This document shows, piece after piece, positions 1,132-25,062 of a stretch of DNA of 64,000 bases. The DNA is taken from NCBI GenBank assembly GCA_044375955.1, contig JBILLS010000001.1, positions 108,912 through 172,911 of the forward strand. Direction: 5' to 3'. Each line of letters opens with the position of its first letter. Position 1 is the first letter of the stretch. Origin of the DNA: Candidatus Nanopelagicales bacterium. Lineage in GTDB: Bacteria; Actinomycetota; Actinomycetes; S36-B12. Under the pieces are notes generated by a model. That model did not search any database, had not been told where the DNA came from, and saw nothing but the letters and a program-made list of their open reading frames with translations. A program made the position numbers and the translations under genes.

Positions 1132-1148
1132 CAGCACACAAAGCAACT

Positions 1149-1182: not shown

Positions 1183-1200
1183 AGTGCATGTGTCACATCC

Positions 1201-2181: not shown

Positions 2182-2183
2182 CT

Positions 2184-4024: not shown

Positions 4025-4037
4025 GGATCTCTCCCTC

Positions 4038-8306: not shown

Positions 8307-8366
8307 CGTCCGGTCGAAGACCGGGTTCGGGTTGAAGACGAGCAGGGCTATGGCTTTTCCCTTCTA

Positions 8367-8415
8367 GGTAATCGTTGTCACGAGCACAACGACACCTGGG
8401 TAATCGTTGTCACGG
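8367..8415. promoter_or_regulatory. two direct copies of a LacI-type operator candidate
   Basis: GGTAATCGTTGTCACG occurs twice, 32 nt apart, upstream of the pfkB-lacI operon. Read on the minus strand, TGACAACGATTACC approximates the LacI-family consensus TGnAAnCGnTTnCA. Coordinates are +/-1. Confidence 0.45.
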
Positions 8416-8450
8416 GACGTAGCGACGCTAGTGCGCTCGGTGACGTCTGT

Positions 8451-8978
8451 CTAGACCTCGGGTGAATTCGAGGTGGCCTCGAGAACCGCCTGGGCGAGCG
8501 TCTCCGTGGGGAGTGCCGCATCCAGGGCCAGGTGGGGGACCCCCGGCCGGGGCCCGGGTCCGCCCCGCGCCCCCTGGTCGCGGACGGCTCCCCTGGTCTG
8601 GATCCGGCGGGCACGCTCGTCCTCGTCGAGATCCAGCCAGACCAGGAGCCACCGAGGGCAGGGGTCGGCCCACCAAGCCCAGGAGTCGGCCCGGGCCGCG
8701 TACCGGGTGAACGGGGCGGACACGACGATCGGGGTCCCCCCGTTCTGAGCCAGGGTCTGCCGCAGCGCGTCATGCAGGGCCCGGTACCGCGAATCCTTGA
8801 CCGCCTCGAGGAGCTCCGCCTCACTCATCGCGGGATTCTTCGCCCTGGCTTCGTCGACCACAGCGGCACTGACGAGGTCGAAGTCGAGATGCACGCCCTT
8901 GAGTCGAGTGGCGAGAACATCGCCCAGGGTCGACTTGCCTGTTCCTGCAGAACCGGCGACGAAGACCACTGTGCCCAT
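8451..8978 (-). CDS. small P-loop kinase-like protein (AAA_33-like)
   Basis: 175 aa with Walker A GSAGTGKST at residues 9-17. Its size and layout match gluconate/shikimate-kinase-like NTPases. Confidence 0.7.
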   Translation of the reverse strand: MGTVVFVAGSAGTGKSTLGDVLATRLKGVHLDFDLVSAAVVDEARAKNPAMSEAELLEAVKDSRYRALHDALRQTLAQNGGTPIVVSAPFTRYAARADSWAWWADPCPRWLLVWLDLDEDERARRIQTRGAVRDQGARGGPGPRPGVPHLALDAALPTETLAQAVLEATSNSPEV

Positions 8979-9039
8979 GCGACAGTCTCCCTAGGACGAG
9001 TGGCCGTCATGCTAGAACGGAGGTCCTGAAGGGAGCGCG

Positions 9040-10131: not shown

Positions 10132-10133
10132 GC

Positions 10134-10568
10134 CTATCCCTCGATAGTCACGACGACGATGAAGCTCGACCCATCGGCGTTGGTGACCGTGACGTTCGCG
10201 GTTCCTGCGGACAGTGCCATCCCGCCCGGGTTGTAGGCGACCCCGCCCTCTTCCCTGCCGGGTGTGACCTCCACGACAGCCGGGTTGTCGGATTCGATGG
10301 TCGCCTTCAGCGGATCGTCGACCATGAACTCGAGCCCATCGCCGACGTTGGCGAGTGCCTCGGTCTGGTCGGGGACGATGACGATCGGCGCGAGCATCGA
10401 GAGGTTCTCGTCGGTGATCTCGATGCCATCGCCTTCCATGGTGTCGCCGACGGGAGTCGACTCACCGCCCGCGGCCGCCTGCTCCGCGCCGTCACCCCCG
10501 GACGAGCACCCTGCGACGAAGGTTGCCGCAAGTGTTGCGGCAGCGGCTAGGGCGATGATCCGACGCAT
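10134..10568 (-). CDS. lipoprotein with Ig-like (Big_2-type) C-terminal domain
   Basis: 144 aa. The signal peptide ends in the lipobox FVAG/C, and the C-terminal ~80 aa (ATIESDNPAVVEVTPG...ANVTVTNADGSS) look like a bacterial Ig-like domain. Confidence 0.7.
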   Translation of the reverse strand: MRRIIALAAAATLAATFVAGCSSGGDGAEQAAAGGESTPVGDTMEGDGIEITDENLSMLAPIVIVPDQTEALANVGDGLEFMVDDPLKATIESDNPAVVEVTPGREEGGVAYNPGGMALSAGTANVTVTNADGSSFIVVVTIEG

Positions 10569-10657
10569 GGGGGGGTCCTCTCGGTACGTGAGCTCTCACA
10601 CCTAGTCTGCCTTAGTCGAACTATTCGGCAAACACAGAGGGGACTTCGAGGATCCGC

Positions 10658-11878
10658 ATGTCCGGGAGCCAGCCCACCGCCCGCCGCCGATTGCCGGTCT
10701 TCATGCTGGAAAGTGCGAACCTCGCCTCCGGCCTCGGTAACGCCGTGGTGCTGGTGGCACTCCCCTGGCTAGTGCTCGAGATCACGGGGTCGCCCTCGTT
10801 CACGGGTGTCGTGGCTGCCGCGAGTGCGCTGCCGGCATTGGTGATGGCGCCTCTGGCGGGATGGCTGGTCGATCACGTGGGGCGCCGCGCGGTGAGTATC
10901 GGGTCAGACATCCTGTCCGCGCTCTCAGTCGCCGCGATCCCGGTGGTGGCGATCATCGGCGACCTCACGCCGACGATGATCCTGCTGCTCGCAGTGCTGG
11001 GCGCGGCGTTCGATCCGGCGGGGTATACCGCCCGCCGCACCCTGCTTGTCGACGCCGCACGTGCCGCTCAGATGGATCAGAACAGACTCAACGGGATCCA
11101 TGAGGGTGTGTTCGCCGTCGGGTTCGTCCTTGGTCCAGTGGTGGGTGCCGCCGCGATCACTGCGGTCGGCCCTACGAACGCGTTTTGGATTCCGTTCGGG
11201 CTTTTCCTTGTCGCCGCCCTCGCGATCACATGCATGCGCGTAACCGCCACGCGAGAGGAGGTCGATTCGTCGAGCACGGTCGGTTGGCGGGGGCTCACCC
11301 GTGGATTCGTAGTGCTGTCGAAGGATCGACTCCTGCTCACCATCACCATCGGGGTCCTTGTCCTCGCGGCGATCTACCTCCCGACGGAGGCGATCGTGCT
11401 ACCGACGTACTTCGAGGCGCGGGATGAACCCAGTTCCCTCGGGCTCGTGATTGCGGCGCTCTCAGCGGGGGCGATGATCGGCGCATTCCTCTACGGCTGG
11501 ATCAGTGCGCGCATGTCGACCAAGCGCCTACTGCAACTCATCATGATCGGAACAGCGGTGAGCATCCTTCCGATGGCGTTCCTACCCCCGCTTCCGATTC
11601 TCCTCGGAGCGGGATTCCTGCTTGGCTTCTTCTGGGGTCCATTCAATCCGCTGATGACGACGCTGGTGCAAGATCGCGTCCCCGCGGATGAGCAGGGTCG
11701 TGTGTTCGGGGTCCAACTCTCCGTGTTCTATGCGGCCCCACCGCTAGGAATGATCATCGTCGGCTACACGGTGGAGACTTGGGGTGTTGCCACGACGTAT
11801 CTCATTCTCGCCGGAACGCTGGCGATTACATCCATCGCGGTGCTGTTCGCGCGCTCGGTGCGTCAACTCCCCCCGTGA
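10658..11878 (+). CDS. MFS transporter
   Basis: 406 aa with about 12 TM helices and an MFS loop motif (PLAGWLVDHVGRR). The start could lie downstream. Confidence 0.8.
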   Translation: MSGSQPTARRRLPVFMLESANLASGLGNAVVLVALPWLVLEITGSPSFTGVVAAASALPALVMAPLAGWLVDHVGRRAVSIGSDILSALSVAAIPVVAIIGDLTPTMILLLAVLGAAFDPAGYTARRTLLVDAARAAQMDQNRLNGIHEGVFAVGFVLGPVVGAAAITAVGPTNAFWIPFGLFLVAALAITCMRVTATREEVDSSSTVGWRGLTRGFVVLSKDRLLLTITIGVLVLAAIYLPTEAIVLPTYFEARDEPSSLGLVIAALSAGAMIGAFLYGWISARMSTKRLLQLIMIGTAVSILPMAFLPPLPILLGAGFLLGFFWGPFNPLMTTLVQDRVPADEQGRVFGVQLSVFYAAPPLGMIIVGYTVETWGVATTYLILAGTLAITSIAVLFARSVRQLPP

Positions 11879-11919
11879 TCACACCGATCAACACAGGACC
11901 CGAGCCCTAGGCTTCCTCG

Positions 11920-13053
11920 ATGAATTCGCAACGGGAGGCCATGCCTGACCGGCTCCGCGCCCTCGCGTTGCTGGGAATCGTGGTTGTCAACGCACCGCTG
12001 CTTGGCATCGTTGGCAGCGAGGGGCTCTCTCAGGAGTCACTGACGGGCCCGATCAACACTTCGGCCGCCTTCCTGATGATTGCCCTCGCTCAGGGGAAGT
12101 TCTATCTCCTGTTCTCGTTTCTATTCGGCTATAGCGCCTCCTACATTCTCAAGGACAACACGCGCGCCAACAGGTTCCGCTTCAGCCGGAGGCTCCTCGT
12201 CCTCGCTGCAATCGGATTCGTGCATGCGGTCTTCTTCTTCATCGGAGACATCCTCATCAGCTACGCACTGCTCGGCTTCGGGCTCCTCGCGCTCTCCCGA
12301 CGCTCGGATCGAGCGCTCAAAGTCTGGATAGTGATCACGGCGACTGTCTCGGTCCTCCTGATCACAGCGTCTGTGTCACTGGTCGCACTGATCCCGGAAC
12401 CGAGTCCCGGCTTGACCTATCTGGACTCAGCGTTGGCGACTGGATCCTTCGTCGAGGCTGCCGGTGCGCGACTCCAGTCTCTTCCGACCGTGGTGATCTA
12501 CGTCCTGCTGACCCAGGGCGGGATGGCCTTCGCCGCATTCCTGCTGGGCCTGCTCGCTTCACGTCACCGATACCTGGCCGAACCGCTCACGCACTCGGCG
12601 CAATGGCGGCGGATGATGATCGTCGGCCTGTCTGTCGGACTTCCGCTCCAGGTGGTTGCGGCATGGCTGCAAGTCACCTCGATTAGCGCAGGATCGGTGT
12701 ACTCCGGAGCCGGCAGCTTGGGGTTGATTCTCGGTTTCTCGACGGCACCGGTGCTGGCTGCAGGCTATGTCGGTGCCTTGGGTTGGATCCTCAGTCGCAG
12801 GCCGGCTTTCCTCCGCACCCTCACTCCCGCAGGTCGGGCTTCACTCACGGTCTACATCGGCGAGTCCGTGCTGCTATCGCTGCTGTTCTGCGGCTACGGC
12901 CTGGGCTTCTACGGAGAGTGGGGCGCTTTCCCGGTCATGCTCGCGGCAGTCCTGTCGTGGGTTCTGCTGGTGCTGTTCGCTCGGCTGTGGCTCAATCGGT
13001 TCCCGCGCGGTCCACTGGAGGAAGTTGTCGCGCGTCTCACGCGACGTGGGTAA
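11920..13053 (+). CDS. DUF418/YeiB-family membrane protein
   Basis: 377 aa, polytopic. The N-terminus RLRALALLGIVVVNAPLLG is typical of the DUF418 family. Confidence 0.7.
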   Translation: MNSQREAMPDRLRALALLGIVVVNAPLLGIVGSEGLSQESLTGPINTSAAFLMIALAQGKFYLLFSFLFGYSASYILKDNTRANRFRFSRRLLVLAAIGFVHAVFFFIGDILISYALLGFGLLALSRRSDRALKVWIVITATVSVLLITASVSLVALIPEPSPGLTYLDSALATGSFVEAAGARLQSLPTVVIYVLLTQGGMAFAAFLLGLLASRHRYLAEPLTHSAQWRRMMIVGLSVGLPLQVVAAWLQVTSISAGSVYSGAGSLGLILGFSTAPVLAAGYVGALGWILSRRPAFLRTLTPAGRASLTVYIGESVLLSLLFCGYGLGFYGEWGAFPVMLAAVLSWVLLVLFARLWLNRFPRGPLEEVVARLTRRG

Positions 13054-13061
13054 CTCATGTT

Positions 13062-13125
13062 CTACGACTGCGCCATGTCCACGAAGCGTGAGTAGTGCCC
13101 CTGGAAGGAAACCGTGATGGTCGCG
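13062..13125 (-). pseudogene. orphan 3' fragment of dnaB (left direct repeat)
   Basis: In the dnaB frame the minus strand reads ATITVSFQGHYSRFVDMAQS-stop. The live DnaB C-terminus is ATITVAFQGHYSRFVDMAQS. It is 61/64 nt identical to 22645-22708, and no dnaB sequence lies upstream of it. Confidence 0.85.
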
Positions 13126-13211
13126 ATTCGTGTACAAGGGATCTTCAGAGCAATTGTCGAACTGACCAGCAGGCAGTGTCAGCATGAGCTTCTCATTGAA
13201 CTAGGTAGGCA

Positions 13212-14069
13212 CTAGGCCTTTTCAACGACTTGCCTTTGCAGACCCAGGCCTTGAATTCCCACCTCCATAACGTCACCTGGTGCCAAGTACCTTGGCGGCT
13301 TCTTCCCAAGACCAACCCCTGGCGGGGTGCCGGTGTTGATGAGGTCGCCGGGCTCAAGGACCATGAACTGACTGAGATACCAGACGAGGAAATTGACGGG
13401 GAAAATCATCGTCCTGGTCGAACCCTCCTGCATCCTTTCGCCATTGACATCAAGCCACATGTCGAGATCCTGAGCGTCGAGGATCTCATCGGGGGTAGCC
13501 AGCCATGGTCCACACGGGTTGAAGGAGTCGCATGACTTCCCCTTGACCCACTGACCTCCACGTTCAAGTTGAAATTCCCGTTCGGAAACGTCATTGACAA
13601 TCAGGTATCCCGCAATTGCGTCAGCCGCATCATCGGGAGAAGCGAGATAAGAGACACGTTGTCCTATCACGACGCCTAGCTCTACCTCCCAATCCGTCTT
13701 TCGTGAATTACGGGGGATGAACACCGGGTCATTGGGGCCTGCAATGGTGTTCGGAGCTTTATTGAAAATGATCGGTTCCGCAGGAATCGACATGTTTGAC
13801 TCAATCGCATGGTCCGAATAGTTGAGGCCAACACAAAGGATCTGATGTGGTCGAGATATTGGTGATCCGATTCTCTTTCCCGCTATCGATTGCTGAGGTC
13901 CCTGGTCGATTCTCCGCCGAATTGCCCTTTGCAGTTCCGGACTACCCAAATTGACGATTGCATCAGCATTGATATCGGGGACGATATCCGAGATATCGAC
14001 GAAGACCTCATCATTCACCATGACAGCAGGCGACTCGGCCCCGACCGGTCCAACTCGTGCGAATTTCAC
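13212..14069 (-). CDS. fumarylacetoacetate hydrolase (FAH)-family protein
   Basis: 285 aa with GLNYSDHAIES...PIIFNKAPNTIAGP...DWEVELGVVIG, typical of FAH-family 2-keto/2,4-diketo-acid hydrolases or hydratases. Confidence 0.85.
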   Translation of the reverse strand: MKFARVGPVGAESPAVMVNDEVFVDISDIVPDINADAIVNLGSPELQRAIRRRIDQGPQQSIAGKRIGSPISRPHQILCVGLNYSDHAIESNMSIPAEPIIFNKAPNTIAGPNDPVFIPRNSRKTDWEVELGVVIGQRVSYLASPDDAADAIAGYLIVNDVSEREFQLERGGQWVKGKSCDSFNPCGPWLATPDEILDAQDLDMWLDVNGERMQEGSTRTMIFPVNFLVWYLSQFMVLEPGDLINTGTPPGVGLGKKPPRYLAPGDVMEVGIQGLGLQRQVVEKA

Positions 14070-14989
14070 TCGTTCTCTCCTAAGTCGATCTTCTGTGAGG
14101 CTTCCCGTCGACTGACGTAATCGGGGAAACCGACCTTCAAGTTGACCATCACGGGCAATGGCGCACCCGGTACATGCACCTTGGAAACGTAGACCGCCCC
14201 GTCTTCCGCTCGCTTGCTCTGCTCGGGATTCGCGGTCGTTATTGCGAGGTGGTCAAGTTCGTCTCCAACGAAGCAGCAGGAGGTGACATGGGCGGCAGGC
14301 ACCTCGATCCTTTCCAAGGAATTCCCTCGGAGGTCAAAGCACACAAGCTGACCGCCGGACCAGAACGCAACCCACACACGACCCTTCACGTCCATTGCGC
14401 ATCCGTCAGGGAGTCCCGCTATATGCGAGAGGTCAACGATTCGGGGGGGCGAAGTGACTGTTCCCTCGTCCGGCGAGTAGTCATAGACGAAGAAGGCCCT
14501 TCGCAAGGTATCGATATGCACCATGGTGTGGCCATCAGCCGACCACACCAGGCCGTTGGAGATGCTCAGCCCGGACAAGATTTCGGTGGATCCGGCGCGA
14601 TCCACACGTAGCAAGGATCCGAAACCATCCTGATATTCGCGATGCGTAGTACCGAGGAACAGTCGACCTCGCGAGTCACATCCTCCGTCATTGAAGCGAA
14701 CGTTCACGTCCAAGGGGATATGCCTCACTGGCTCAATTTCAGGCAATATGCCCAAGGCGATCGACCTTTCAAGGGCCACAGCCTGTTGACCATCGGCGGT
14801 GGAGACAATGCAGCAGACCGATTGAAGGGTCTCAAAGGAACGCAGCTCCCGTGAGGCCCAATTGATCGAGAAGAGTTTTCGACTGTCGATGTCAGAAAAC
14901 CAGAGGATTCCACGCGGATCCCAATAGGGAGATTCCCCTAGGGAGCATCCAGCGTGGGCGACTAGTTCCGCCGTTGTCGTGGGGATCAT
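14066..14989 (-). CDS. SMP-30/gluconolactonase-family protein
   Basis: 307 aa. The N-terminal GESPYWDPRGILWFSDI and the repeated beta-propeller pattern fit this family. 4-nt overlaps on both sides. Confidence 0.8.
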   Translation of the reverse strand: MIPTTTAELVAHAGCSLGESPYWDPRGILWFSDIDSRKLFSINWASRELRSFETLQSVCCIVSTADGQQAVALERSIALGILPEIEPVRHIPLDVNVRFNDGGCDSRGRLFLGTTHREYQDGFGSLLRVDRAGSTEILSGLSISNGLVWSADGHTMVHIDTLRRAFFVYDYSPDEGTVTSPPRIVDLSHIAGLPDGCAMDVKGRVWVAFWSGGQLVCFDLRGNSLERIEVPAAHVTSCCFVGDELDHLAITTANPEQSKRAEDGAVYVSKVHVPGAPLPVMVNLKVGFPDYVSRREASQKIDLGENE

Positions 14990-15738
14990 CGTGCGGTCAT
15001 GCCGCCGTCGACAACCAGGGCGCTTCCAGTCACAAATGAGTTACGCACCAAGAAGACAACCGCGGCAGCAATTTCGTTCGGGTCACCGAGTCTTCCGAGT
15101 AATTGCCGTTCTTCCATCACTTTTCGCGCCTGCTCCGGCTGTGGGTTGTCAGCCAAGATTCCGTCGATCCAGCCAGTGAGTACCGTTCCTGGACAAACAG
15201 CGTTGACACGTATTCCATCCTTTGCATGATCGACTGCCATGGCTCGAGTAAGCGACACAACAGCACCCTTGGAAGCGCAATAGGCCGCGCGTGATTCAAG
15301 GCCGACGAGCGCGGCCACCGAGGCGATGTTGACGATTGATCCACCACCGCGACTGATCATGTGAGGGACCAGCAGCCGAGAAGTCTCGAATATGGCGTGG
15401 ATGTTTACGTCAAAGATTCGATGCCACTGTTCTCGGGTAGTCGCTACCACATTTGCGGCCACTGCTGTACCTGCATTATTCACGAGAACATCGATCGAAG
15501 TCCTGCCGAGCACCTCCGTTAGAGCTGCCTCAAGATTTGCGGCCTCAGCGACGTCCGCGGTAATTCCCTCGACCGCTACCCCCTCATCGTTGAGCGATGA
15601 GACAACCGTGGACAAGGTCTGGTCATCCCTATCGACGAGGACAAGATTCATCTTTTCCGAGGCAAGAGCGAAAGCGATCGAGCGCCCGATACCGCTCGCC
15701 GCACCGGTCACGAGTGCTGTTTTCTCCACGGCAGCCAC
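14986..15738 (-). CDS. SDR-family oxidoreductase
   Basis: 250 aa with TGAASGIG and YCASKGAV (YxxxK). Confidence 0.85.
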   Translation of the reverse strand: MAAVEKTALVTGAASGIGRSIAFALASEKMNLVLVDRDDQTLSTVVSSLNDEGVAVEGITADVAEAANLEAALTEVLGRTSIDVLVNNAGTAVAANVVATTREQWHRIFDVNIHAIFETSRLLVPHMISRGGGSIVNIASVAALVGLESRAAYCASKGAVVSLTRAMAVDHAKDGIRVNAVCPGTVLTGWIDGILADNPQPEQARKVMEERQLLGRLGDPNEIAAAVVFLVRNSFVTGSALVVDGGMTAR

Positions 15739-15740
15739 CC

Positions 15741-16109
15741 CTACTTCTGGGGAAGCCCAGAGACGTCAAAGTAGGCCCGCACTTCCTTGAAGCGGTCCCC
15801 TTCGAGCTTTATGACATTCACTCCTGATATCGGGTAGCGGACACCCTTCTCGTCGATCAGGACCGCAGACCACTCGACTACCGCGGTATCACCATCCCCG
15901 TAGTCCCCCACCACCTCGACCTCGAGACCTGGAAACTGCGCGGCCGATTCCTCGTAGTACCTCCGAACTTCATGGTGACCCACAAGGTCCCATCCTGGGG
16001 CAACGAAACGGGCATCGGGTTGGTAATGACGGAGCACTCCGTCTATGTCTCTCGCGCACTCACTTCTCCAGTACGACTCGGCGACTTCTCTTTGTCTTGA
16101 CACGTTCAT
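15741..16109 (-). CDS. SnoaL/NTF2-like small protein
   Basis: I moved the start to ATG 16107-16109 (MNVSRQREVAESYW). 122 aa with a SnoaL-like pattern (YYEESAAQFPGLEVEV...AVVEW). The longest ORF adds 24 unlikely codons. Confidence 0.6.
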   Translation of the reverse strand: MNVSRQREVAESYWRSECARDIDGVLRHYQPDARFVAPGWDLVGHHEVRRYYEESAAQFPGLEVEVVGDYGDGDTAVVEWSAVLIDEKGVRYPISGVNVIKLEGDRFKEVRAYFDVSGLPQK

Positions 16110-16147
16110 GCACCTCACAGTGGGTCGCGGAAATTGGAAATGGGAAT

Positions 16148-16179
16148 GGTGGGCGGAGGACACACATCCTCCGCCCACC
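16148..16179 (-). terminator. intra-operon stem-loop just after the SBP gene
   Basis: Perfect 13-bp stem GGTGGGCGGAGGA / TCCTCCGCCCACC with a 6-nt loop, 7 nt past the SBP stop. On the minus strand it is followed by the T-rich ATTCCCATTTCCAATTTCC. Confidence 0.6.
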
Positions 16180-16185
16180 ACGCGG

Positions 16186-17271
16186 CTAGAAAGCGCCGCC
16201 CGTTTCCTTTTGCTTGGTTATGTACTCGGCGATGTTGGTCTCATCGACCACATAGAGATCCGTGTACAACGGATCCGCAGGTGGAGTGCAGGTGTTGAGA
16301 TAGTCGACCATCGCCTGGACGCCGGTCTGGCCGAATCCCCACCATGAGTAGCCGACGAGCTCATTCGCATAGCCCTGATCGACGGCATTGAGCGCACCCT
16401 CCAGTGAATCGAGAGAATTCACGTATCCACCGTCAGCCACGAACTGCTTGAGGTTCGGCATTGAGGCGAGGTCAGCGAAGAACGGCCACATGCCGACAAA
16501 GAAGTACCCCTTGAGATCCGGCGTGGCATTGATCTTCGTTTCAACGATCTCGACTGCCTTCTGGACATCATCGAAATTCGGGTCCACCGAAACAATCTCC
16601 AGTTTCGAATTACTGGCAATACCCTCCTTGAAACCAGCAAGTCGTTGCTCGAGATTGAGGGCACCCGGTGTGCCCGTGAGAACGGCCACCTGACCACCAT
16701 CCGGCATCGCCTTCGCCATCAATTCGCCCGCCAACTTGCCTGCTGCGGTCTGGTCAATACCAATATTCGTCAGCCGCTTGGATGCCGGTGCGTCTGCATC
16801 CCAGGTCATGACCGGAATTCCCGCCTCGACAGCCCGGTCAATGCTCGGATCCAGCGCGGACGCGTCGTTCGCGCTGAGAATGATCCCATCGACACCTTTT
16901 GTCACGAGATCGTCGATGATCTGGCTCTGGGCAGCTGCATCCGTAGTCGCCGGACCTACCCATTCCACGGTGACGTTGCCAAGTTCGGCAGCCTTGTCCT
17001 CTGCACCCTGGCGAGTGATCTCGAATACAGGGTTGTTCAAGGCCTTCGGAACGAAAGCGATAGTGTAAGCATCCTTCGGGGTCGGGCAATTTGCATTGGC
17101 TTCGGCAGCGGGGCTTTGCGCCGCGGCCGTCTCCTCTGCAGTTTGGGCGTCTGAGGTTTCTGCGCTGTCAGTTGAGCCTCCACACGCGGCCAAGACCATG
17201 GCCCCGACAGCCAGCATCGTTACCGCGATGCTGGTCTGTCCCTTGATTCTCTTCATGTGCATCTTCTCCAT
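16186..17271 (-). CDS. sugar ABC transporter substrate-binding lipoprotein
   Basis: 361 aa. The signal peptide carries the lipobox LAA/C, followed by a low-complexity linker and a type I periplasmic binding fold. Confidence 0.85.
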   Translation of the reverse strand: MEKMHMKRIKGQTSIAVTMLAVGAMVLAACGGSTDSAETSDAQTAEETAAAQSPAAEANANCPTPKDAYTIAFVPKALNNPVFEITRQGAEDKAAELGNVTVEWVGPATTDAAAQSQIIDDLVTKGVDGIILSANDASALDPSIDRAVEAGIPVMTWDADAPASKRLTNIGIDQTAAGKLAGELMAKAMPDGGQVAVLTGTPGALNLEQRLAGFKEGIASNSKLEIVSVDPNFDDVQKAVEIVETKINATPDLKGYFFVGMWPFFADLASMPNLKQFVADGGYVNSLDSLEGALNAVDQGYANELVGYSWWGFGQTGVQAMVDYLNTCTPPADPLYTDLYVVDETNIAEYITKQKETGGAF

Positions 17272-17312
17272 TCCTTAGTTGACCTGCTGTCCACCAGCAG
17301 GACATTCGTGGG

Positions 17313-18308
17313 TTACTGGGTGCGACTTCGCCGTCGGAAGAGGTCAAACATCGCAGCGACCAATATGACGGCACCGATAAATGTCTGTTGCCAGTAGGTG
17401 GGAACAGACAGGAGCACCAGTGCGTTATTCACCAGTGAGATGAGCAATGCACCCAGGAGAACTCCGAGTGCGGTTCCTTTGCCGCCCGCAAGCGAGGCAC
17501 CACCGATGACCACCGCCGCGATAACGGTCAGTTCCATTCCAACACCTGCGTTCGGAACGGCAGAGCCGAGGCGCGCGGTGACCATGACACCGGCTAGACC
17601 CGCGAAGAGGCCACTGAAAATGAACGCGAGCAGAATTCGACGCTTCACCGGGACTCCGGAAAGTCCAGCAGCCACACGATTAGATCCCACCGCATACATG
17701 TCCCGTCCCAGTGCGGTCTTCGCCAAGACGATCCAGACGATGACGGCGAGGAACACCGCGATCCAGATGGGTATGGGTACCCCGAGAACCGGTGCAGTGC
17801 CGAGTTCAAGAAACCCTTCGGGCAGTCCTGACACCGCTTGACCCTGTTTGTATCCCAGTGTGATACCTCGGACCATTTGCAGAGTCGCTAACGTGACGAT
17901 GAAACTCGTGATTCCAATGTAGGCAACAACGACACCATTGAACGCTCCGACGGCCAGACCAATGAGTAGCCCGACGACGAATGCCCAAATCGGATTACCC
18001 CCCTCTGCCATGATCGAGGCGGTCACGATTCCGGCAAGTCCCATCGTTGAGCCCACCGACAGATCGATCCCGCCGACGATCACCACAAACAGTTGGCCGA
18101 GAGCAGCCATCGCAACGAAGGCCCAGTACAGACCGACAGAAGACAAATTCTTTCCGGTAAGGAATGCATCCGATGAAAGGCTAAGTACCACCATTGCCAC
18201 TGCGATCGCGGCAAGAAGCCTGAGATCGCTGAACTTGCCGAGATAGGCTGAGATCGAACGTCCGGTGCCACCCCAGGAACTCGTCTCAATCGACGAACTG
18301 CTGCTCAT
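17313..18308 (-). CDS. sugar ABC transporter permease
   Basis: 331 aa, RbsC-type polytopic protein. Its start overlaps the ATPase stop by 4 nt. Confidence 0.85.
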   Translation of the reverse strand: MSSSSSIETSSWGGTGRSISAYLGKFSDLRLLAAIAVAMVVLSLSSDAFLTGKNLSSVGLYWAFVAMAALGQLFVVIVGGIDLSVGSTMGLAGIVTASIMAEGGNPIWAFVVGLLIGLAVGAFNGVVVAYIGITSFIVTLATLQMVRGITLGYKQGQAVSGLPEGFLELGTAPVLGVPIPIWIAVFLAVIVWIVLAKTALGRDMYAVGSNRVAAGLSGVPVKRRILLAFIFSGLFAGLAGVMVTARLGSAVPNAGVGMELTVIAAVVIGGASLAGGKGTALGVLLGALLISLVNNALVLLSVPTYWQQTFIGAVILVAAMFDLFRRRSRTQ

Positions 18309-19816
18309 GCTGCCTGACCTCCTCTGATCTGGCTTTTCGGTGTCGCCAAGCGCATGACTTCGTCGGGCGAGATTCCGTGACTGCCGTCAAGTTGACCTTG
18401 GATGCGGCCCTCGGCAAAGACATAGACGCGGTGGGAAAGCGCGAGAACCTCTTCCAACTCACTCGAGATGAGAATCGTCGCTGTTCCACCCCTGGCCAGC
18501 TCAATGATCAGTTTGTGGATTTCGTCTTTAGCTCGCACATCGACTCCGCGAGTCGGCTCGTCCAAAATGAGAACCCGTGGCCGTGCCTCGATTGCACGGG
18601 CAAGAATTGATTTCTGTTGATTGCCGCCGCTCAACGTCTCAATGGGTTGAAGAAGACTCTGCAATCGAATATCGAACAATGATTTGGACTCATCAGACGC
18701 CCGACGCAGTTCTTTCGAGCTGAGAAGACCCCACTTGATGAACTGTGAGAGGTTTCCAACATGCAGGTTCTCGTGAACGGATAGGCCGGGAACTATGCCT
18801 TGGTGCTTTCTGTCCTCTGGTACGAGTGCAATTCCCGCCTTGCGGATGGCACTCATTGACCGACCCGAAACTCTTTGACCGTCGAGAACGACTTCCCCGC
18901 TCGTCAATGGATCCGCACCGATGATGGCAAGAGCTGCTTCACTTCGCCCAGATCCCACGAGTCCTGCGAGGCCGATGATCTCGCCATCGTGAACCGTCAT
19001 TGAGATGTCATGGACATTTCGTGTCGATACATCGCGCACTTGAAGGACCAGCGATTCTCCGGGCGCAGGTAGTTCCGTTCGATAGAGTCCAACCGGACGA
19101 TCCACCATGAGGTGGATTAGTTCGTCCTCCTCAACTTCCCCATCAAATGAGCCAACGATCCGCCCATCCCGCATCACGGTTATCTCGTCCGAGATGCGTA
19201 ATACCTCATTGAGACGGTGTGAGATAAAGGCAATTCCACGATCGCCTCTCCTTAGGGCTTCTATTTGACTGAGAATCACCTCACTCGCGTCACCTGACAG
19301 CGCTGCAGTGGGCTCATCGAAGATGATGAACCGCGCATTGAGTGCCAATGCTTTGGCAATTTCGACTAGGTACCCCTGAGCGACAGAGAGCTCGGCTACC
19401 GGGGAGGCAGGGTTGATATCCAGATCTACTGAGGCCAGTGCCTCGCTGACGAATTGTTTCCCGGCACGGCTTCCACGGATCCTCCATGGGGCTCCTCGGG
19501 GACGAGCGAGCATGATGTTGTCGGCGACGGACAACCCGGACACGAGGGCAAGCTCCTGATGGACCATGACGATCCCGAGATCGGTTGCATTCCGTGGGTT
19601 TGACAGCGTCACCTCCTCTCCATTGAGGACGAGGCGCCCCGTGCTAGGGGAGGTGACACCGGCCAATATGCGCATCAAGGTGCTCTTGCCTGCGCCGTTT
19701 TCCCCCACGATCGAATGAACCCTGCCGCCAGTCAAGGCCAAGGTCGCATCACTGAGGACTCGCACTCCGTCGTACGACTTGGAGACGTTCACCGCTCCAA
19801 ATGTCGGGTGAGTCAT
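18305..19816 (-). CDS. sugar ABC transporter ATP-binding protein (double cassette)
   Basis: 503 aa with two Walker A sites (GENGAGKST, GLVGSGRSE), a second-cassette signature LSGGNQQK, and Walker B motifs IFDEPTA and ILDEPTRG. Confidence 0.9.
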   Translation of the reverse strand: MTHPTFGAVNVSKSYDGVRVLSDATLALTGGRVHSIVGENGAGKSTLMRILAGVTSPSTGRLVLNGEEVTLSNPRNATDLGIVMVHQELALVSGLSVADNIMLARPRGAPWRIRGSRAGKQFVSEALASVDLDINPASPVAELSVAQGYLVEIAKALALNARFIIFDEPTAALSGDASEVILSQIEALRRGDRGIAFISHRLNEVLRISDEITVMRDGRIVGSFDGEVEEDELIHLMVDRPVGLYRTELPAPGESLVLQVRDVSTRNVHDISMTVHDGEIIGLAGLVGSGRSEAALAIIGADPLTSGEVVLDGQRVSGRSMSAIRKAGIALVPEDRKHQGIVPGLSVHENLHVGNLSQFIKWGLLSSKELRRASDESKSLFDIRLQSLLQPIETLSGGNQQKSILARAIEARPRVLILDEPTRGVDVRAKDEIHKLIIELARGGTATILISSELEEVLALSHRVYVFAEGRIQGQLDGSHGISPDEVMRLATPKSQIRGGQAA

Positions 19817-20568
19817 GAGACCCCCCGGAATCCGAGCCTTGTAGAAATCGTCGCAGCTGCACGAGTAACGGCTTCGAGGTAGTCGCCGTCCAGTTTGCGC
19901 AAGGGGTCCGCATCAATGACTGAGACAGATAGCGCAGCAACTAGTCGCCCGTCACGGTCAAAGAGAGGCGCAGCGAAGCACGTTACTCCGACGGTTGATT
20001 CTCCCCGATCAACGCAGTAGCCAGATTTCGCAGACTCTCGTACGACGGCAATCAGATCTTCCCGTGTTGCAAGCGTGTTTCCTGTGAGTCGAGGTAGCGC
20101 TTCCGTGGGATAAAGAGCGCGGATCTCATCATCTGTCAAACCCTGCATCAAGATCTTGCCGAGTGCCGTCGCATGAGCAGGGAGACGTTTGCCGACCGCG
20201 CTGACTAATCTGACCGGGCGCTCATTCTCTTCCTTGAGCACGTAGATCACATCGTCGCCGTCGAGGATGCCGACGTGAGCAATCTGCTTGACCTCCGCGA
20301 CTAAATTGCGCAAGGTCTCAGCTGCTGCACCCTCGATGGTCATGTTGTTTGACCATGTCGCGCCCACTTCAAATGCGCGAAGGCCAATCGAATACGCACC
20401 CCCCTGGCCTAGGGATAGGAATCCATGGTCGACGAGGACGCCAAGGAGTCCGTGAAGACTCGAGCGAGGCAAGACCAACTGGTCTCGGATCTCCTTCATG
20501 GAGACCGGCTGTTCCTTCGCGACGAAGGCCAGGATCTCCAGGACCCTATCGGCGGACTTGATTGTCAT
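19813..20568 (-). CDS. IclR-family transcriptional regulator
   Basis: 251 aa with an N-terminal wHTH (ADRVLEILAFVAKEQPVSMKEIRDQL) and a C-terminal IclR effector domain. Confidence 0.85.
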   Translation of the reverse strand: MTIKSADRVLEILAFVAKEQPVSMKEIRDQLVLPRSSLHGLLGVLVDHGFLSLGQGGAYSIGLRAFEVGATWSNNMTIEGAAAETLRNLVAEVKQIAHVGILDGDDVIYVLKEENERPVRLVSAVGKRLPAHATALGKILMQGLTDDEIRALYPTEALPRLTGNTLATREDLIAVVRESAKSGYCVDRGESTVGVTCFAAPLFDRDGRLVAALSVSVIDADPLRKLDGDYLEAVTRAAATISTRLGFRGVS

Positions 20569-21497
20569 TCGACTTTCTCCAATTCAGCGACGAGCACCTC
20601 GGCTGCTCTCCGGCGGAGCTTGATCAGAGACGCGGGGCTGTAGTAGGCCACATGAGGCGTTGCGACGACCCGAGGGTGGAGGGCCAGCTTTGACGCATTC
20701 CCGCTCTCCTGAACGAAAACATCAAGGCCGGCAGCTGCGATAGCCCCTGAATCCAGGGCGGTCACGAGGGCTTCTTCGTCAATAAGTGATCCTCGCGAAA
20801 CGTTCAAGAGAATGGCGCCCGGCTTTACGCGAGCGAACTCTCGCACACTCAAAAGAGAAGCGGAGCCGGGCTGCGCTGGAACGTGGAGTGAGATCACATC
20901 CGAGTTCAAGACTTCCTCGAAACTCACTGACTCGACACCGTGCTCATCCAGGACCGTGGAGTTGACATTCGGATCGTGGGCGCACACTCTGCAGCCAAAT
21001 GCCTGCAAGCGGCGAGCGACAGCTCGAGCAATCTGACCAAATCCGATCAGCCCAATGGTTTTCCCACCTAAGGGCTCAAGTGCGGGGAAATCATGAGGCG
21101 GCGGCCAGGCACCCTTCTTGATTGCCGAATCACATTCTCGGATGCTGCGAGTCAGCGCGAGCAATAGTGCTAGGCAATGGTCCGCAACCTCATCGATGCA
21201 GTAATCATTGATTCCACGTACAGCGACCTGGGCACGTTCAGCGGCATCTAGATCAATCGTGTCCAAGCCGACGCCGTAACGGACTACTGCCTTCAGAGAC
21301 GGCGACTCAGAAATTACAAGCTCAGATATCGGCGCGTATTGCACAAGAAGCCCGGCGCTGCCCTGCGCTGCATCGATGATCTCCTGTTCATTGTGGAGTT
21401 GTCGGATGTCGAGCGAGTATCCAAATTCACCAACGACACCGCGCTCTATGGAGCCATCGCCGAAGTCACAGTCTGTTATAAGAATCTTCTTAGTCAT
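20565..21497 (-). CDS. D-isomer-specific 2-hydroxyacid dehydrogenase family protein
   Basis: I moved the start to ATG 21495-21497 (MTKKILITD), an 8-nt overlap with the upstream stop. NAD motif GLIGFGQIARAV. Confidence 0.8.
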   Translation of the reverse strand: MTKKILITDCDFGDGSIERGVVGEFGYSLDIRQLHNEQEIIDAAQGSAGLLVQYAPISELVISESPSLKAVVRYGVGLDTIDLDAAERAQVAVRGINDYCIDEVADHCLALLLALTRSIRECDSAIKKGAWPPPHDFPALEPLGGKTIGLIGFGQIARAVARRLQAFGCRVCAHDPNVNSTVLDEHGVESVSFEEVLNSDVISLHVPAQPGSASLLSVREFARVKPGAILLNVSRGSLIDEEALVTALDSGAIAAAGLDVFVQESGNASKLALHPRVVATPHVAYYSPASLIKLRRRAAEVLVAELEKVE

Positions 21498-22530
21498 GCG
21501 CGACTCCGTTTGGCATGACGATGACCTTGCCCACGTCATTCGGATTCAGGCACGCCATACGAAAAGCTTCGGCAGTTCTCTCGAGGGGATACTGATGGGA
21601 TATCAGCAGGCTCGGCCTGACGCGACCCTCCGCTAGAAGGGTTAGTGCTTTGGGCCACACGCCCGGGCTTCCCAGAGAACCGATGACCGTTTGGTCACCC
21701 ACCACCAACGCATCAGTGTTGATGGGTACGGTCGGGAGTCCACACAGACCTACCAGCACGGCACGGCCACCATTGGACAGGTGGCCAAGCGCGTCTTGAA
21801 CCCCGCTCGCCGTGCCCGACGCTTCAAGGATCCGATCGAATCGGTGCTCACCGGGTTCGACTGGTGTTGCTCCGAGGTCACGCCCACGATTGCGGCGAGA
21901 CTCCGAAGGCTCTAGGAGAAACGGCCTGGCCCGACCCTCGGCGCGGAGAATCATGACTGCCAATAGACCGATAACGCCCGCTCCGACGATCAGAACCGAC
22001 TCCCGGTTGCCCACCTCGAGTCGTTCCACTGCACGCAGAGCCACCGCTAAAGGCTCTGTCAGGGCGGCGTCTTGAAGGTTCACACCTTTAGGAACTATGT
22101 GAGTGGCCTTCGCAGGAAAGATCATGCGCTCAGTCAGGGCCCCGTCAAGCTTCATGACGCCCGTCTCGAATCTCGCTGTGCACTGGTGATAGTTCGAGTC
22201 CCAGCAGCGCGGACACCGGCCGCATCCGATACTGCACTCCCCCACCACGACGTCACCAGGCGCTAATCCCGTCACCCCTGGTCCTACTTCGAGGATTCGT
22301 CCGACCCACTCGTGGCCCGGAACTAGAGGCAGCTTGGTAAGGCCTTGCCTGAGGTACACCATTGAGCCTTGAAGCAACTCTTGGTCAGTCGCACAAACCC
22401 CAACAATGAGTGGCTCGATGGCGACTTGGTTCTGAGGAGGGGCAAATGGCGAACGTTCAACAACCTCGAGGACGTCTGCCCCTCGGATCTCAACGGCCCT
22501 CAACCGTTCACATCCCTGAACACAATTCAT
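21490..22530 (-). CDS. zinc-dependent alcohol/polyol dehydrogenase (MDR family)
   Basis: 346 aa with GHEWVG, a structural-zinc Cys cluster (CGRCPRCWDSNYHQC) and NAD motif GAGVIGLL. A TTG start at 22503 is an alternative. Confidence 0.85.
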   Translation of the reverse strand: MNCVQGCERLRAVEIRGADVLEVVERSPFAPPQNQVAIEPLIVGVCATDQELLQGSMVYLRQGLTKLPLVPGHEWVGRILEVGPGVTGLAPGDVVVGECSIGCGRCPRCWDSNYHQCTARFETGVMKLDGALTERMIFPAKATHIVPKGVNLQDAALTEPLAVALRAVERLEVGNRESVLIVGAGVIGLLAVMILRAEGRARPFLLEPSESRRNRGRDLGATPVEPGEHRFDRILEASGTASGVQDALGHLSNGGRAVLVGLCGLPTVPINTDALVVGDQTVIGSLGSPGVWPKALTLLAEGRVRPSLLISHQYPLERTAEAFRMACLNPNDVGKVIVMPNGVAHD

Positions 22531-22570
22531 ACATGTAGACAGCCTATGGGCAAGGCTGGGGAAATCAAGG

Positions 22571-22606
22571 CGCGTTTCCGAATCGTTACGCGCTTCCGCA
22601 TCGTTG
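22571..22606. repeat. tandem 18-nt repeat in the island operon upstream region
   Basis: CGCGTTTCCGAATCGTTA followed directly by CGCGCTTCCGCATCGTTG (15/18 identical). It lies 41-76 nt upstream of the ADH start and 38 nt past the dnaB stop. Confidence 0.5.
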
Positions 22607-22644
22607 CCTCGAGCGCACCCGTGGCAGCGCGGGCATAAGCCCTG

Positions 22645-22708
22645 CTAGGACTGCGCCATGTCCACGAAGCGTGAGTAGTGACCCTGGAAGGCAACCGTGA
22701 TGGTCGCG
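22645..22708 (-). repeat. right direct repeat (3' end of the live dnaB)
   Basis: 61/64 identical to 13062-13125 and covers the last 20 codons plus stop of dnaB. Confidence 0.85.
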
Positions 22709-25062
22709 GTGGGTCCGTTGCGGTGCTTGGCGACGATGAAGTCAGCTTCACCGGCACGCGGTGACTCACGCTCGTAGAAATCTTCGCGGTGAAGGAGCAC
22801 AACCATGTCTGCGTCCTGCTCCAGTGAGTTGTGCACCGCGACGCCATCGGCGATGAAGTTGTGCGTTCCCAGCACCTCGGCGTCGAACACGTCCATCTCA
22901 CCGAGTGACTCGACACCTACGACTTCATCCCAGTAGACATCGTTCGTGGCGATCATCTCGAGCTCCTCGGATTCGAGGACGGTGGCCACCCGTTGCAGAC
23001 GCTGCCTGCTGGGCGCCGACTTCCAGAGCGTGCTGCCGCAGTACTGGGTTCCCAGTTTCGACTGGAACTCGCGATGGGTCATGCCCTTCTCACCGATGAT
23101 CTCGCGTACCTGATTCCACACGTCGACGGGAACCGTGTCACGCTTCGGATTCGAATCGATGTCCTCGAGGATGCGCAAGAGCCGACGCCCGGTTGTTCCA
23201 CGCGACCCGTACGCATTGATCCGACGAAGGAATACCTTCTGGTCGGCTGCTCCGGAGATATCCACGTGGTACCCATCTCGGAAACCGCTCTTGCGGGCGA
23301 CACGAATTCGCGTGTGGATCCCGAATCGAAGGAGCAGACGCGACACGCCATCGGCGAGAGCTCGGCTCGTCGACGCGTAGTAGATGCGCCCTCCGCGCTC
23401 GTGCGGCGAGATGAGGATCGATCCGTCTGTCGCCCAGAGATGACGCAGGAAGAGTGCGATCTGCTCCTTGGGCAACGAGAAGACCGGTTCCGGGATGGCG
23501 GTCACACTCACGGAGGTCGACTCATCGCAGAGCGATTGAGCAAGAACGATGACCCGCTCATCCGACCACTCGGTGACCCGGGTGGGGGCGGGGACGTGGC
23601 GCGGGATGGCGATCCGATCACCGGAATCCAACGCACCCAAGGACGTCCAACCATGGAAAGTCAGGAATGGGTGGTTGGCCGTGGCGTCGACGACCCGTCC
23701 GCTCGCCGTGCGGAGGCGGAAGACTTCCTTCCGACCCGTGGAGAACACATGGGTCAACGGACGAGACACGTAGCGCAGGGAATCATCGAGGGACCACACG
23801 GGGATATCGCGCTCTCCTGAGGCGAACAGTTCACCCATGGTTACTTCCGCACCGTTGTCGGCCCGTAGCACGCGTGTGGTGGCAGGAAGGCAACCCGACT
23901 CACGAAGGTCCGACAGCATCGGTCGCTTGTCTTGGCGCTGTTCCGGACCGCGGTTGAGCTGGCTGATCGCAATGACGGGCACGTCGAGTTCCTTCGCGAG
24001 CAGCTTCAACGAACGTGAGAATTCCGACACTTCCTGCTGACGACTCTCGACGCGCTTACCGCTCGTCATCAATTGCAGGTAGTCGACGACGACGAGTCGT
24101 AGATCGTGTCGCTGCTTCAGGCGCCGGCATTTCGCGCGAATCTCCATGAGAGTCAGGTTGGGTGAATCATCGATGAACAGGGGGGCGTCGTTGACCGTTC
24201 CCATCTTCTGGGCGAGCTTGGTCCAGTCGGTGTCGGTCATAGTGCCGGTGCGCATGTGATGCATGGACACCTGCGCTTCAGCGGCAAGCAAACGCATCAC
24301 GATCTCATTGCGACTCATCTCCAAGGAGAAGATCACGCTGGTGAGACCGTGCTTGATGGATGCCGCACGACAAATATCGATACCGAGCGTGCTTTTGCCA
24401 ATCGAAGGCCGTGCAGCCAGAATCACGAGTTGGCCCGGATGCAGACCGTTGGTGAGCGAATCCAGATCGGTGAATCCGGTGGGAACGCCGACCATCTCAC
24501 CGTCACGATTAGAGATCGCCTCGATCTCGGTGAGTGCCTCGTTCATCACGGCACTCAGCGGGAGGTAGTCGTCACTGTTCCTACGTTCCGTGACCTCGTA
24601 GACCTCGGCTTGCGCGCGATCGACGATGTCGTCGACCTCACCCGTTCCGCTATAGCCCATCTGCGTGATGCGCGTTCCGGCCTCGACGAGGCGGCGCAGG
24701 ATCGCCTGCTCGCGCACGATGCGTGCGTAGTAGTTGGCATTCGCGGCCGTGGGGACCATCGACACGAGTGTGTGGAGGTAACTGGCACCACCGATGCGTG
24801 AGATCTCCGCGCTCTTCGTGAGTTCGGCCGAGAGGGTCACCGCATCGGCGGGTTCCCCGCGCCCATAGAGATCGAGGATCGATCCGTAGATGACCTGGTG
24901 CGCCGGTCGATAGAAGTCCGTCTCGCGAATCACCTCGACGACGTCGGCGATCGCGTCTTTACTCAGCAACATCGCGCCGAGAACGGATTGCTCAGCAGCG
25001 ATGTCCTGGGGCGGGGTGCGATCGGCGGGCTGATCAGGAAGCGGCAATTCCGCGACGCTCAC
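22645..25062 (-). CDS. dnaB: replicative DNA helicase DnaB, intein-containing
   Basis: 805 aa with a GTG start preceded by GGGGAGGGA. Walker A ARPSIGKST. The RESG / S(L)EQDAD motif is split by a 355-aa insert. Confidence 0.95.
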   Translation of the reverse strand: MSVAELPLPDQPADRTPPQDIAAEQSVLGAMLLSKDAIADVVEVIRETDFYRPAHQVIYGSILDLYGRGEPADAVTLSAELTKSAEISRIGGASYLHTLVSMVPTAANANYYARIVREQAILRRLVEAGTRITQMGYSGTGEVDDIVDRAQAEVYEVTERRNSDDYLPLSAVMNEALTEIEAISNRDGEMVGVPTGFTDLDSLTNGLHPGQLVILAARPSIGKSTLGIDICRAASIKHGLTSVIFSLEMSRNEIVMRLLAAEAQVSMHHMRTGTMTDTDWTKLAQKMGTVNDAPLFIDDSPNLTLMEIRAKCRRLKQRHDLRLVVVDYLQLMTSGKRVESRQQEVSEFSRSLKLLAKELDVPVIAISQLNRGPEQRQDKRPMLSDLRESGCLPATTRVLRADNGAEVTMGELFASGERDIPVWSLDDSLRYVSRPLTHVFSTGRKEVFRLRTASGRVVDATANHPFLTFHGWTSLGALDSGDRIAIPRHVPAPTRVTEWSDERVIVLAQSLCDESTSVSVTAIPEPVFSLPKEQIALFLRHLWATDGSILISPHERGGRIYYASTSRALADGVSRLLLRFGIHTRIRVARKSGFRDGYHVDISGAADQKVFLRRINAYGSRGTTGRRLLRILEDIDSNPKRDTVPVDVWNQVREIIGEKGMTHREFQSKLGTQYCGSTLWKSAPSRQRLQRVATVLESEELEMIATNDVYWDEVVGVESLGEMDVFDAEVLGTHNFIADGVAVHNSLEQDADMVVLLHREDFYERESPRAGEADFIVAKHRNGPTATITVAFQGHYSRFVDMAQS
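22828..23892 (-). mobile_element. DnaB intein with LAGLIDADG-type endonuclease-like insert
   Basis: Covers aa 391-745. It begins with Cys after RESG, has block B TANHPF, and ends VAVHN followed by Ser. Internal motifs are FLRHLWATDGSI and FLRRINAYGSRG. Removing it restores the contiguous RESGSLEQDAD. Confidence 0.9.

Follow-up and report, generated by a model that had tools for sequence, protein, structure and literature searches.

How ten metabolic genes, probably forming a single operon, came to lie between two copies of the 3' end of an essential helicase gene, with no recombinase gene beside them, is the question raised by a locus in the genome of Candidatus Nanopelagicales bacterium. The locus was examined in a 64-kb stretch of assembly GCA_044375955.1 (contig JBILLS010000001.1, positions 108,912-172,911, + strand). 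To avoid any confusion, "the window" is used throughout to refer to this whole stretch, and all positions are counted from its first base. Within it, the helicase gene dnaB is separated from the convergent DUF418 membrane-protein gene by a block of ten genes, here called the island, and by an orphan copy of the last 64 nt of dnaB, which lies at the far side of the block. The comparisons described below show that the island is an optional insertion that passes between strains through ordinary homologous recombination in the neighboring genes. Its founding event is tentatively read as a displacement anchored on dnaB, by which the resident end of the gene was stranded as the orphan tail.

Two alleles of one gene end

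The orphan tail (13062-13125) and the functional end of dnaB (22645-22708) are direct repeats that are identical at 61 of 64 nt, and the 32-nt core that they share perfectly occurs exactly twice in the window, where no copy is expected by chance (100 shuffles). The similarity breaks off sharply at both ends, the outer one falling precisely on the dnaB stop codon (+ strand CTA). When read in the dnaB frame, the three mismatches are GCC in dnaB and TCC in the orphan (Ala/Ser), GGT and GGG (Gly, silent), and TCC and TCG (Ser, silent), and the orphan keeps both the frame and the TAG stop. The mismatches and the retained frame and stop had been listed in the first-pass annotation of the window, and the alignment shows them to be real. 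There is no dnaB reading frame upstream of the orphan, stops breaking the frame there, and both repeat copies are invariant in all island-bearing contigs.

It had been proposed in the same annotation that the mostly silent differences point to two dnaB alleles, and that the orphan is the different one. The silent ratio itself is not significant: 23% of random substitutions in the tail are synonymous, and the probability of at least two silent changes out of three is 0.14. The existence of two alleles is nevertheless established by the population data, namely by the state of position 13098 and by an 11-site tract in the adjoining part of dnaB that is described below. On the + strand, repeat positions 4, 37, and 48 read C, C, C in the island-free strains, C, C, A in the orphan, G, A, C in the functional copy, and C, A, C in the sister species. 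The orphan is identical to the island-free dnaB tail at 63 of 64 nt, and the C at 13098, derived by comparison with the sister species, is common to these two; the functional copy and the sister species have A at this site. Between the functional tail and the island-free allele there are two differences, at 22648 and 22681, both of them silent. Relative to the island-free strains, it is the dnaB-attached copy that looks more foreign and the orphan that looks like the resident tail. The two copies do differ in allele, as had been proposed, but the roles assigned to them appear to be reversed. The only change that is unique to the orphan is the replacement one (Ala to Ser), as is expected of a copy that is no longer under selection.

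Island-bearing and island-free forms

Natural controls were gathered by DUF418 and DUF4190 protein look-up in public assemblies, and consist of metagenome contigs of the same species. The outgroup DNA came from one species, the sister species. The island was found in L001/L109, L002, L003, L006, L008, L111, L112, L117, and L113, the last of which breaks in the tail; L001/L109 is 99.995% identical to the window. From gene calls, L112 had been taken as a contig with the dnaB intein (see below) and without the island, which was ruled out when the alignment showed the island to be present. Six contigs (L004, L005, L007/L114, L009, L010, and L110) are free of the island, and in these dnaB, 8 nt, and the convergent DUF418 gene follow one another uninterrupted; the similarity of the window to them ends exactly at 13125. 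The same dnaB-DUF418 junction was found in the sister species (L072-L075, ~85% nt identity) and in a related metagenome-assembled genome (GCA_041443045.1). Since dnaB adjoins DUF418 in both of these, the insertion is the derived state. The island is therefore a derived insertion that is optional within the species.

The two forms also differ within dnaB. In the window this gene (22645-25062, minus strand; Pfam DnaB, DnaB_C) encodes 805 aa, including an intein whose splicing residues are canonical, with a first Cys, a last His-Asn, and then Ser. All island-bearing contigs that reach dnaB (the window, L001/L109, L111, L112, L117, and L113) have the 805-aa intein form. The dnaB genes of the island-free contigs are intein-less, the complete ones (L004, L005, L007, and L110) encoding 450 aa; L009 and L010 contain only a partial dnaB, yet are colinear across the intein site. 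The association of intein and island is complete, with no mixed class among the ~11 contigs of the species that span the site. In the sister species the intein is present (93% aa identity) and the island is absent.

Present-day exchange of the two forms

A matrix of single-nucleotide polymorphisms (SNPs) across all contigs revealed how narrow the region is in which the two classes differ consistently. On the left, the class-fixed SNPs are 13053, 13059, 13060, and 13109, and three of these four occupy the stop-codon base 13053 and the adjacent 8-nt spacer between the DUF418 and orphan stop codons (13054-13061); on the right, there are 11 such sites in the C-extein of dnaB. Otherwise, only the intein and the island separate the classes. 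The fixed differences are confined to 13053-23892, and the fixed SNPs give out within ~45 bp of the structural differences on the left and within 31 bp on the right. The SNPs at 11602, 12591, 24211, and 24535 are common to both classes. The island-free contig L007 equals the window over 8783-12590 and 23900-27227 and differs from it by the block between. Because the fixed differences are confined in this way and the polymorphisms outside are common, the two forms are structural alleles that are exchanged by host homologous recombination in the flanking core genes; the island is gained and lost through ordinary homologous recombination in these genes. A single homologous exchange that crosses over once in DUF418 and once in the N-extein of dnaB turns an L007-like genome into a window-like one or the reverse. 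Among the routes of entry that had been suggested for the block in the first-pass annotation, homologous recombination anchored on dnaB fits these data best. The diversity of the island among its carriers is 0.08-0.14%, and that of the flanks is 0.2-0.3%. Nothing points to the use of the repeats as excision sites: the island-free tails sit in flanks that differ at every fixed site, and they are not simple recombinants of the two copies in an island-type flank.

The C-extein, which lies between the intein and the island, has a history of its own. Its 11 differences from the island-free allele, all synonymous, span 22648-22825 and form a contiguous tract over the whole 183 nt, adjoining the island, and the encoded protein is identical in the window, the island-free strains, and the sister species. 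When polarised with the outgroup, 3 changes fall specifically on the window allele, 7 on that of the island-free strains, and 13 on the sister species. In this segment the two alleles are ~2/3 as far apart as the two species, and elsewhere the strains differ by 0.03-1.3%. The C-extein is thus a small pocket of deep divergence (~6%, all synonymous), which results from suppressed recombination between the intein and the island. Within it, 5 of the 11 synonymous differences (22810, 22813, 22816, 22824, and 22825) lie within 18 nt of the intein insertion point, a cluster that could represent a homing site that escapes cutting.

Search for recombinases and mobility genes

It had been noted in the first-pass annotation that no recombinase-like gene or frame is visible in the block, and profile searches bore this out. 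None of the ten island proteins matched a recombinase family in Pfam. In the alternative frames of 13040-22730, the 94 stop-to-stop segments of at least 50 aa (7,180 aa) had no Pfam match at E<=0.1. The window gene calls with precomputed Pfam matches run from 1920 to the last base, and none of them is an integrase, transposase, relaxase, or excisionase; these calls are housekeeping and metabolic genes only, and end with parAB, rnpA, rpmH, dnaA, and dnaN. No tRNA gene occurs in the window. By these searches, no recombinase is encoded in the island or elsewhere in the 64-kb window. The idea that the block is a decayed remnant of a mobile element, which had also been raised, is disfavored: the block consists of exactly one predicted operon with ends of 86 and 114 bp, shows no trace of an element backbone, and has the same gene order in another genomic setting (L107, see below).

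Two further kinds of element were considered and rejected. No terminal inverted repeats pairing the two island ends were detected, and a transposon or insertion sequence was ruled out on this ground, on the lack of a transposase, and on the length of the duplication, 64 bp. Integration by XerCD at a dif site was ruled out as well. The locus is ~38 kb from dnaA/dnaN, as given by the replication-origin region at the end of the window, and the 64-mer, read directly, lacks an AT-rich central dif-type motif. A 28-bp dif consensus was used for this comparison; dif sites belong to the terminus region of the chromosome.

Beyond the window, the 32-nt core had no copy in viral contigs. The back-translated DnaB C-terminus was matched at 25 loci in these contigs, 24 of which are full or contig-truncated dnaB genes ending in this tail; a second tail copy was found at none of the loci, and the open reading frames (ORFs) sampled beside dnaB at ten of them included no integrase, being DNA methylases or family-less. 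When compared with phage and plasmid records, the 64-mer matched only ordinary dnaB genes on Streptomyces and Nocardiopsis plasmids (80-89% identity). Such matches indicate that the dnaB tail is conserved at the DNA level, and they do not amount to evidence for an attachment site on an element (attP). No integrase-bearing element using the dnaB-tail site was found in the viral contigs, phage records, plasmid records, or a literature search, and the latter yielded no report of the dnaB 3' end as an attachment site. The predicted circular or tandem joint of the island was not matched in a pattern scan of metagenome contigs; the known orphan junction, included as a control, was not matched either, so this result is uninformative. 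The scanned collection and the JGI contigs obtained by protein look-up (e.g., L002 and L003) cover different samples.

One contig labelled viral has an arrangement of separate interest. L079 (positions 1-4343; IMGVR_UViG_3300046499_000674) breaks off inside a dnaB tail, and 7 nt past the dnaB stop there is a small Cys-rich ORF, accompanied by a 388-aa family-less ORF and a helix-turn-helix protein; a second scan found no second tail copy. This could be an element that inserted immediately behind the dnaB gene of another actinobacterium, or simply a phage that carries a dnaB gene itself.

Origin of the island

The most likely origin of the arrangement, which we put forward tentatively, is a displacement anchored on dnaB that stranded the resident 64-nt end of the gene. 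DNA from a related lineage, carrying the 3' part of another dnaB allele directly followed by the operon, would have recombined with the resident chromosome, dnaB serving as the homologous anchor, and an illegitimate joint would have linked the far end of the incoming DNA to the resident gene at a point 64 nt short of its stop codon. With this, the incoming end would have become the working end of dnaB, and the resident tail would have been shifted downstream as an orphan. Such a process would be a C-terminal displacement, akin to homology-facilitated illegitimate recombination. The orphan would later have gained its one replacement change (Ala to Ser), and the working copy would have kept to silent differences only. 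Several properties of the locus follow from this sequence of events. A single arbitrary joint (13125/13126) accounts for a repeat boundary that falls precisely on the stop codon; for a divergent tract that is unbroken from the intein through the C-extein and the functional tail into the island; for the likeness of the orphan to the resident allele (63/64, with C at 13098); and for a block that is cargo only, consisting of one operon without an element backbone. A donor-type tract of this kind is seen in the window, where the 11 synonymous differences (22648-22825) run into the island and the polymorphisms of the N-extein are common with island-free strains. Orphaned 3' ends left by displacement have a precedent at Rhs, CdiA, and type VI loci (PMC5361080).

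A number of points weigh against this origin. No donor was found that has the operon directly after dnaB and lacks the orphan tail. The assignment of the orphan to an allele rests on one informative site (13098). Beside the orphan, 3 of the 9 bases of 13053-13061 are unlike those of any island-free contig sampled, which implies that the founding event took place in a resident chromosome of a form outside the sample. The split of the orphan and spacer appears younger than that of the C-extein, a difference that is not significant (P=0.10). The exchange between L007-like and window-like genomes may have been a gain or a loss of the island. A 64-bp repeat formed from a conserved gene's 3' end is, besides, what integrase-driven insertion classically leaves behind. 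Moreover, in the organisms for which measurements exist, homology-facilitated illegitimate recombination occurs at frequencies orders of magnitude below those of homologous recombination (PMC5361080).

The integrase signature leads to the chief competing account, which is possible and in our judgment rather unlikely. A circular element whose attP mimicked the last 64 nt of dnaB would have integrated by a single crossover that restored the gene, with a tyrosine integrase encoded elsewhere in the genome, on a helper, or since lost; the island would then resemble a cis-mobilizable element (CIME) and be excisable in trans. The direct repeat of a conserved gene 3' end that bounds a compositionally foreign block, with dnaB intact, is the classical picture of attL and attR, and elements that keep these sites without integration genes are a recognised class (PMC6323972). 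If the host had a sister-type tail and the incoming tail had G, C, and A at repeat positions 4, 37, and 48, a crossover between positions 5 and 36 would even yield both present copies without later mutation, but this three-site fit has little power when attP is free to vary. Integration of this kind predicts neither a divergent tract that reaches past the repeat across the entire C-extein nor a repeat boundary exactly at the stop codon, both of which are expected from displacement. The integrase it calls for is missing from the island, from its alternative frames, and from the 64-kb window, and the block is one operon with no backbone remnants. The viral contigs hold no copy of the core tail and, where they have this DnaB C-terminus, show no integrase beside dnaB; the phage and plasmid matches to the tail are ordinary dnaB genes, and no literature report of the dnaB 3' end as an attachment site was found.

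The repeat could instead have been made on the spot. A local duplication during an illegitimate insertion, for example through repair of a staggered break, would have copied the last 64 nt of the resident dnaB, and later drift would have produced the three differences; we regard this as improbable. Measured against the sister species, there is one silent change in the functional copy and there are two changes in the unconstrained orphan, including the only replacement, which is the distribution that such drift would leave; furthermore, the 8-nt spacer separates convergent genes, so insertions that did not rebuild a gene end would be lost. However, the orphan change at 13098 matches the island-free allele in both site and base, which by our own estimate has a chance of ~1% for two random changes in 64 nt, and the divergence of the repeats (4.7%) is ~30 times the diversity of the island among its carriers (0.08-0.14%). 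Both ends of the repeat would be insertion joints, and the coincidence with the stop codon would be left unexplained. The lack of terminal inverted repeats and the 64-bp length, which far exceeds the target duplications made by transposases, speak against this origin too. Very improbable as the source of the arrangement is a co-transfer driven by the intein, in which the LAGLIDADG endonuclease would cut the intein-less dnaB of island-free strains and the repair of the double-strand gap from an island-bearing template would copy the intein, the C-extein, and the island 183 nt away; in this way the intein would drive the spread of the island. Intein and island are indeed completely associated, with no recombinant class among ~11 contigs, the fixed block ends on the right at the intein junction, and the intein has canonical splicing residues and a predicted endonuclease domain; the crowding of synonymous differences near the insertion point (5 of the 11 within 18 nt) is as expected if intein-less alleles escape cutting. 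Two insertions 183 bp apart would show such an association anyway, though, and the sister species carries the intein without the island. The endonuclease activity is itself a prediction, and gap repair would require degradation past the tail and a 9.6-kb copy. Co-transfer would in any case account for the spread of the island and not for the origin of the repeat.

The cargo and its source

The block between the repeats (13126-22644, 9.5 kb) holds ten co-oriented genes and hardly anything else, its non-coding ends being 86 and 114 bp long. By their Pfam and NCBIfam matches, all ten have metabolic, transport, or regulatory functions (Table 1). Judging from these families, they probably constitute one operon for the uptake and oxidative catabolism of a sugar, for which we infer a substrate of the 6-deoxyhexose/aldonolactone type. 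No consensus promoter or terminator was found in 22531..22644. The island is foreign in base composition, with 56.9% GC and a GC content at third codon positions (GC3) of 57-67%, compared with a GC3 of 75-82% in the host genes.

Table 1. Features of the dnaB-DUF418 locus, in the order of the window
Feature	Position	Strand	Evidence and remarks
DUF418 membrane-protein gene, convergent with dnaB, left core flank	11920..13053	+	Pfam DUF418, 3.4e-32
Spacer from DUF418 stop to orphan dnaB stop, 8 nt	13054..13061	.	Alignments, SNP matrix
Orphan dnaB tail (left direct repeat)	13062..13125	-	Last 20 sense codons, TAG, and 1 nt; 61/64 to right copy
Non-coding left island end, 86 bp	13126..13211	.	Joint with orphan at 13125/13126; no ORF with family match
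FAA-hydrolase family	13212..14069	-	Pfam 1.3e-69; nearest name 2,4-didehydro-3-deoxy-L-rhamnonate hydrolase, NCBIfam NF053535, 349 bits, below cut-off of 500
SMP-30/gluconolactonase-like lactonase	14066..14989	-	Pfam SGL, 7.6e-59
Short-chain dehydrogenase	14986..15738	-	Pfam adh_short_C2, 1.3e-58
SnoaL-like small protein	15741..16181	-	Pfam SnoaL_2, 4.4e-15
Sugar ABC transporter substrate-binding protein	16186..17271	-	Pfam Peripla_BP_4, 5e-56; nearest name rhamnose-binding RhaS, NCBIfam TIGR02637, 1.1e-31, below cut-off
Sugar ABC transporter permease	17313..18308	-	Pfam BPD_transp_2, 3.8e-46
Sugar ABC transporter ATPase, two ABC domains	18305..19816	-	Pfam ABC_tran, 8.1e-48
IclR-family regulator	19813..20568	-	Pfam IclR_C, 5.5e-40
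D-2-hydroxyacid dehydrogenase	20565..21539	-	Pfam 2-Hacid_dh_C, 2.5e-52
Zn-dependent (sugar/polyol) dehydrogenase; first operon gene, adjoins dnaB	21490..22530	-	Pfam ADH_N, 1e-20
Non-coding right island end, 114 bp, begins right after dnaB stop codon	22531..22644	.	Alignment
Functional dnaB 3' end (right direct repeat)	22645..22708	-	Repeat alignment
DnaB C-extein, 60 codons and stop, 183 nt	22645..22827	-	11 synonymous, 0 replacement differences from island-free
DnaB intein, 355 aa, LAGLIDADG endonuclease domain, at RESG|SLEQD	22828..23892	-	Pfam Intein_splicing, LAGLIDADG_3
DnaB N-extein, 390 codons, right core flank	23893..25062	-	Polymorphisms common with island-free strains

The source of the cargo was sought in several collections. 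Among species-representative genomes, the best matches of the substrate-binding protein (59-66%) are in Alpha- and Gammaproteobacteria, the 66% match being in Alphaproteobacteria, and the operon is partly syntenic there; no close copy of the island was found in these genomes. A large protein database contains graded relatives, from 88% down to 71%. In one of the related contigs (L107, 83%), the same ten genes stand in the same order beside an AsnC regulator and a pyruvate dehydrogenase E1 gene, not beside dnaB. The operons of L107 and of a second contig, L108, have only ~70% nt identity and other neighbors. Plasmid records gave matches below 40%. No recent donor was found among the species-representative genomes, the protein database, the contexts of L107 and L108, or the plasmids. 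The operon evidently moves as a unit among lineages.

The second contig is of interest in its own right. In L108 (1-8725), the binding protein is 87% identical, and the operon, with 54.6% GC, is followed by DNA with 65.9% GC, so that it looks like an island there too. An extra FAD-oxidase gene lies between the lactonase and hydrolase genes of this contig.

Other regions of the window

Several other parts of the window also differ between strains or related genomes. A gene for a ~900-aa fibronectin-type-III repeat protein (30336-33077) is strain-variable: it is absent from L118 (30314-33157 missing) and from GCA_041443045.1, and is shorter in L112, L115, and L116; no flanking direct repeat was found. 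The first part of the window (1-10600) contains a second sugar-utilisation cluster (ABC importer, DeoC aldolase, FGGY kinase, LacI regulator, and PfkB kinase), an AAA_18 gene, and two family-less genes. In GCA_041443045.1, the genes after the MFS gene are instead leuS, degV, and comEA/comEC, and 1-10600 may be another variable insertion. Between rpsF and a phosphoribosyltransferase gene (~28380-29080) lies an RHH antitoxin/PIN toxin pair, whose called lengths are 112/129 aa or 89/121 aa depending on the contig. At its end the window reaches the replication-origin region (56485-62834), which comprises parB, parA, rsmG, a KH/R3H-domain gene (jag-like), yidC, yidD, rnpA, rpmH, and dnaA (61422-62834).

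Relation to known systems

The arrangement at dnaB has features of four known kinds of system. [quoted passage not shown] Here, in contrast, the gene is an essential helicase and not a polymorphic toxin, both ends encode the same protein in functional form without a change of function, the cargo is a metabolic operon, and there is a single orphan of only 64 nt. CIMEs and other islands without an integrase likewise have direct repeats that include a gene 3' end, around a block of foreign appearance that lacks genes for integration or transfer (PMC6323972). The island, being bounded by repeats and apparently devoid of such genes, is compatible in structure with a CIME, which does not imply that its repeats function as att sites. 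It differs from CIMEs in that the collections searched contain no cognate element or integrase, in that backbone remnants are absent, and in that a divergent allele extends beyond the repeat.

Strain-variable islands at recombination hot spots, which come and go through homologous recombination in flanking core genes, are also polymorphic for presence and absence, and have common flank polymorphisms and a sharply bounded linked block. They usually lack a duplicated gene end, however, whereas a 183-nt coding stretch with ~6% synonymous divergence is trapped here. Homing DnaB inteins that spread with co-conversion share with the present case the RESG|S site, the occurrence of intein-plus and intein-less alleles, and divergent synonymous sites at the insertion point. 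In contrast to co-conversion around such inteins, the divergent tract here is one-sided and runs into a 9.5-kb island, and homing is putative.

These findings show that an island the size of one operon, with no mobility gene of its own, can occupy the position just downstream of an essential gene, be kept as a structural allele, and be moved by host recombination, with the duplicated gene end as the scar of the founding event. A direct repeat of a gene 3' end is therefore not by itself evidence of an integrase-driven element, which should be borne in mind during annotation. The trapped 183-nt stretch, which has kept ~6% synonymous divergence while the rest of the genome was homogenised, is a useful marker for dating and tracing such an island. 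If the intein does promote co-transfer, a selfish intein in an essential gene would be linked to the spread of adaptive cargo on an island that has no integrase.

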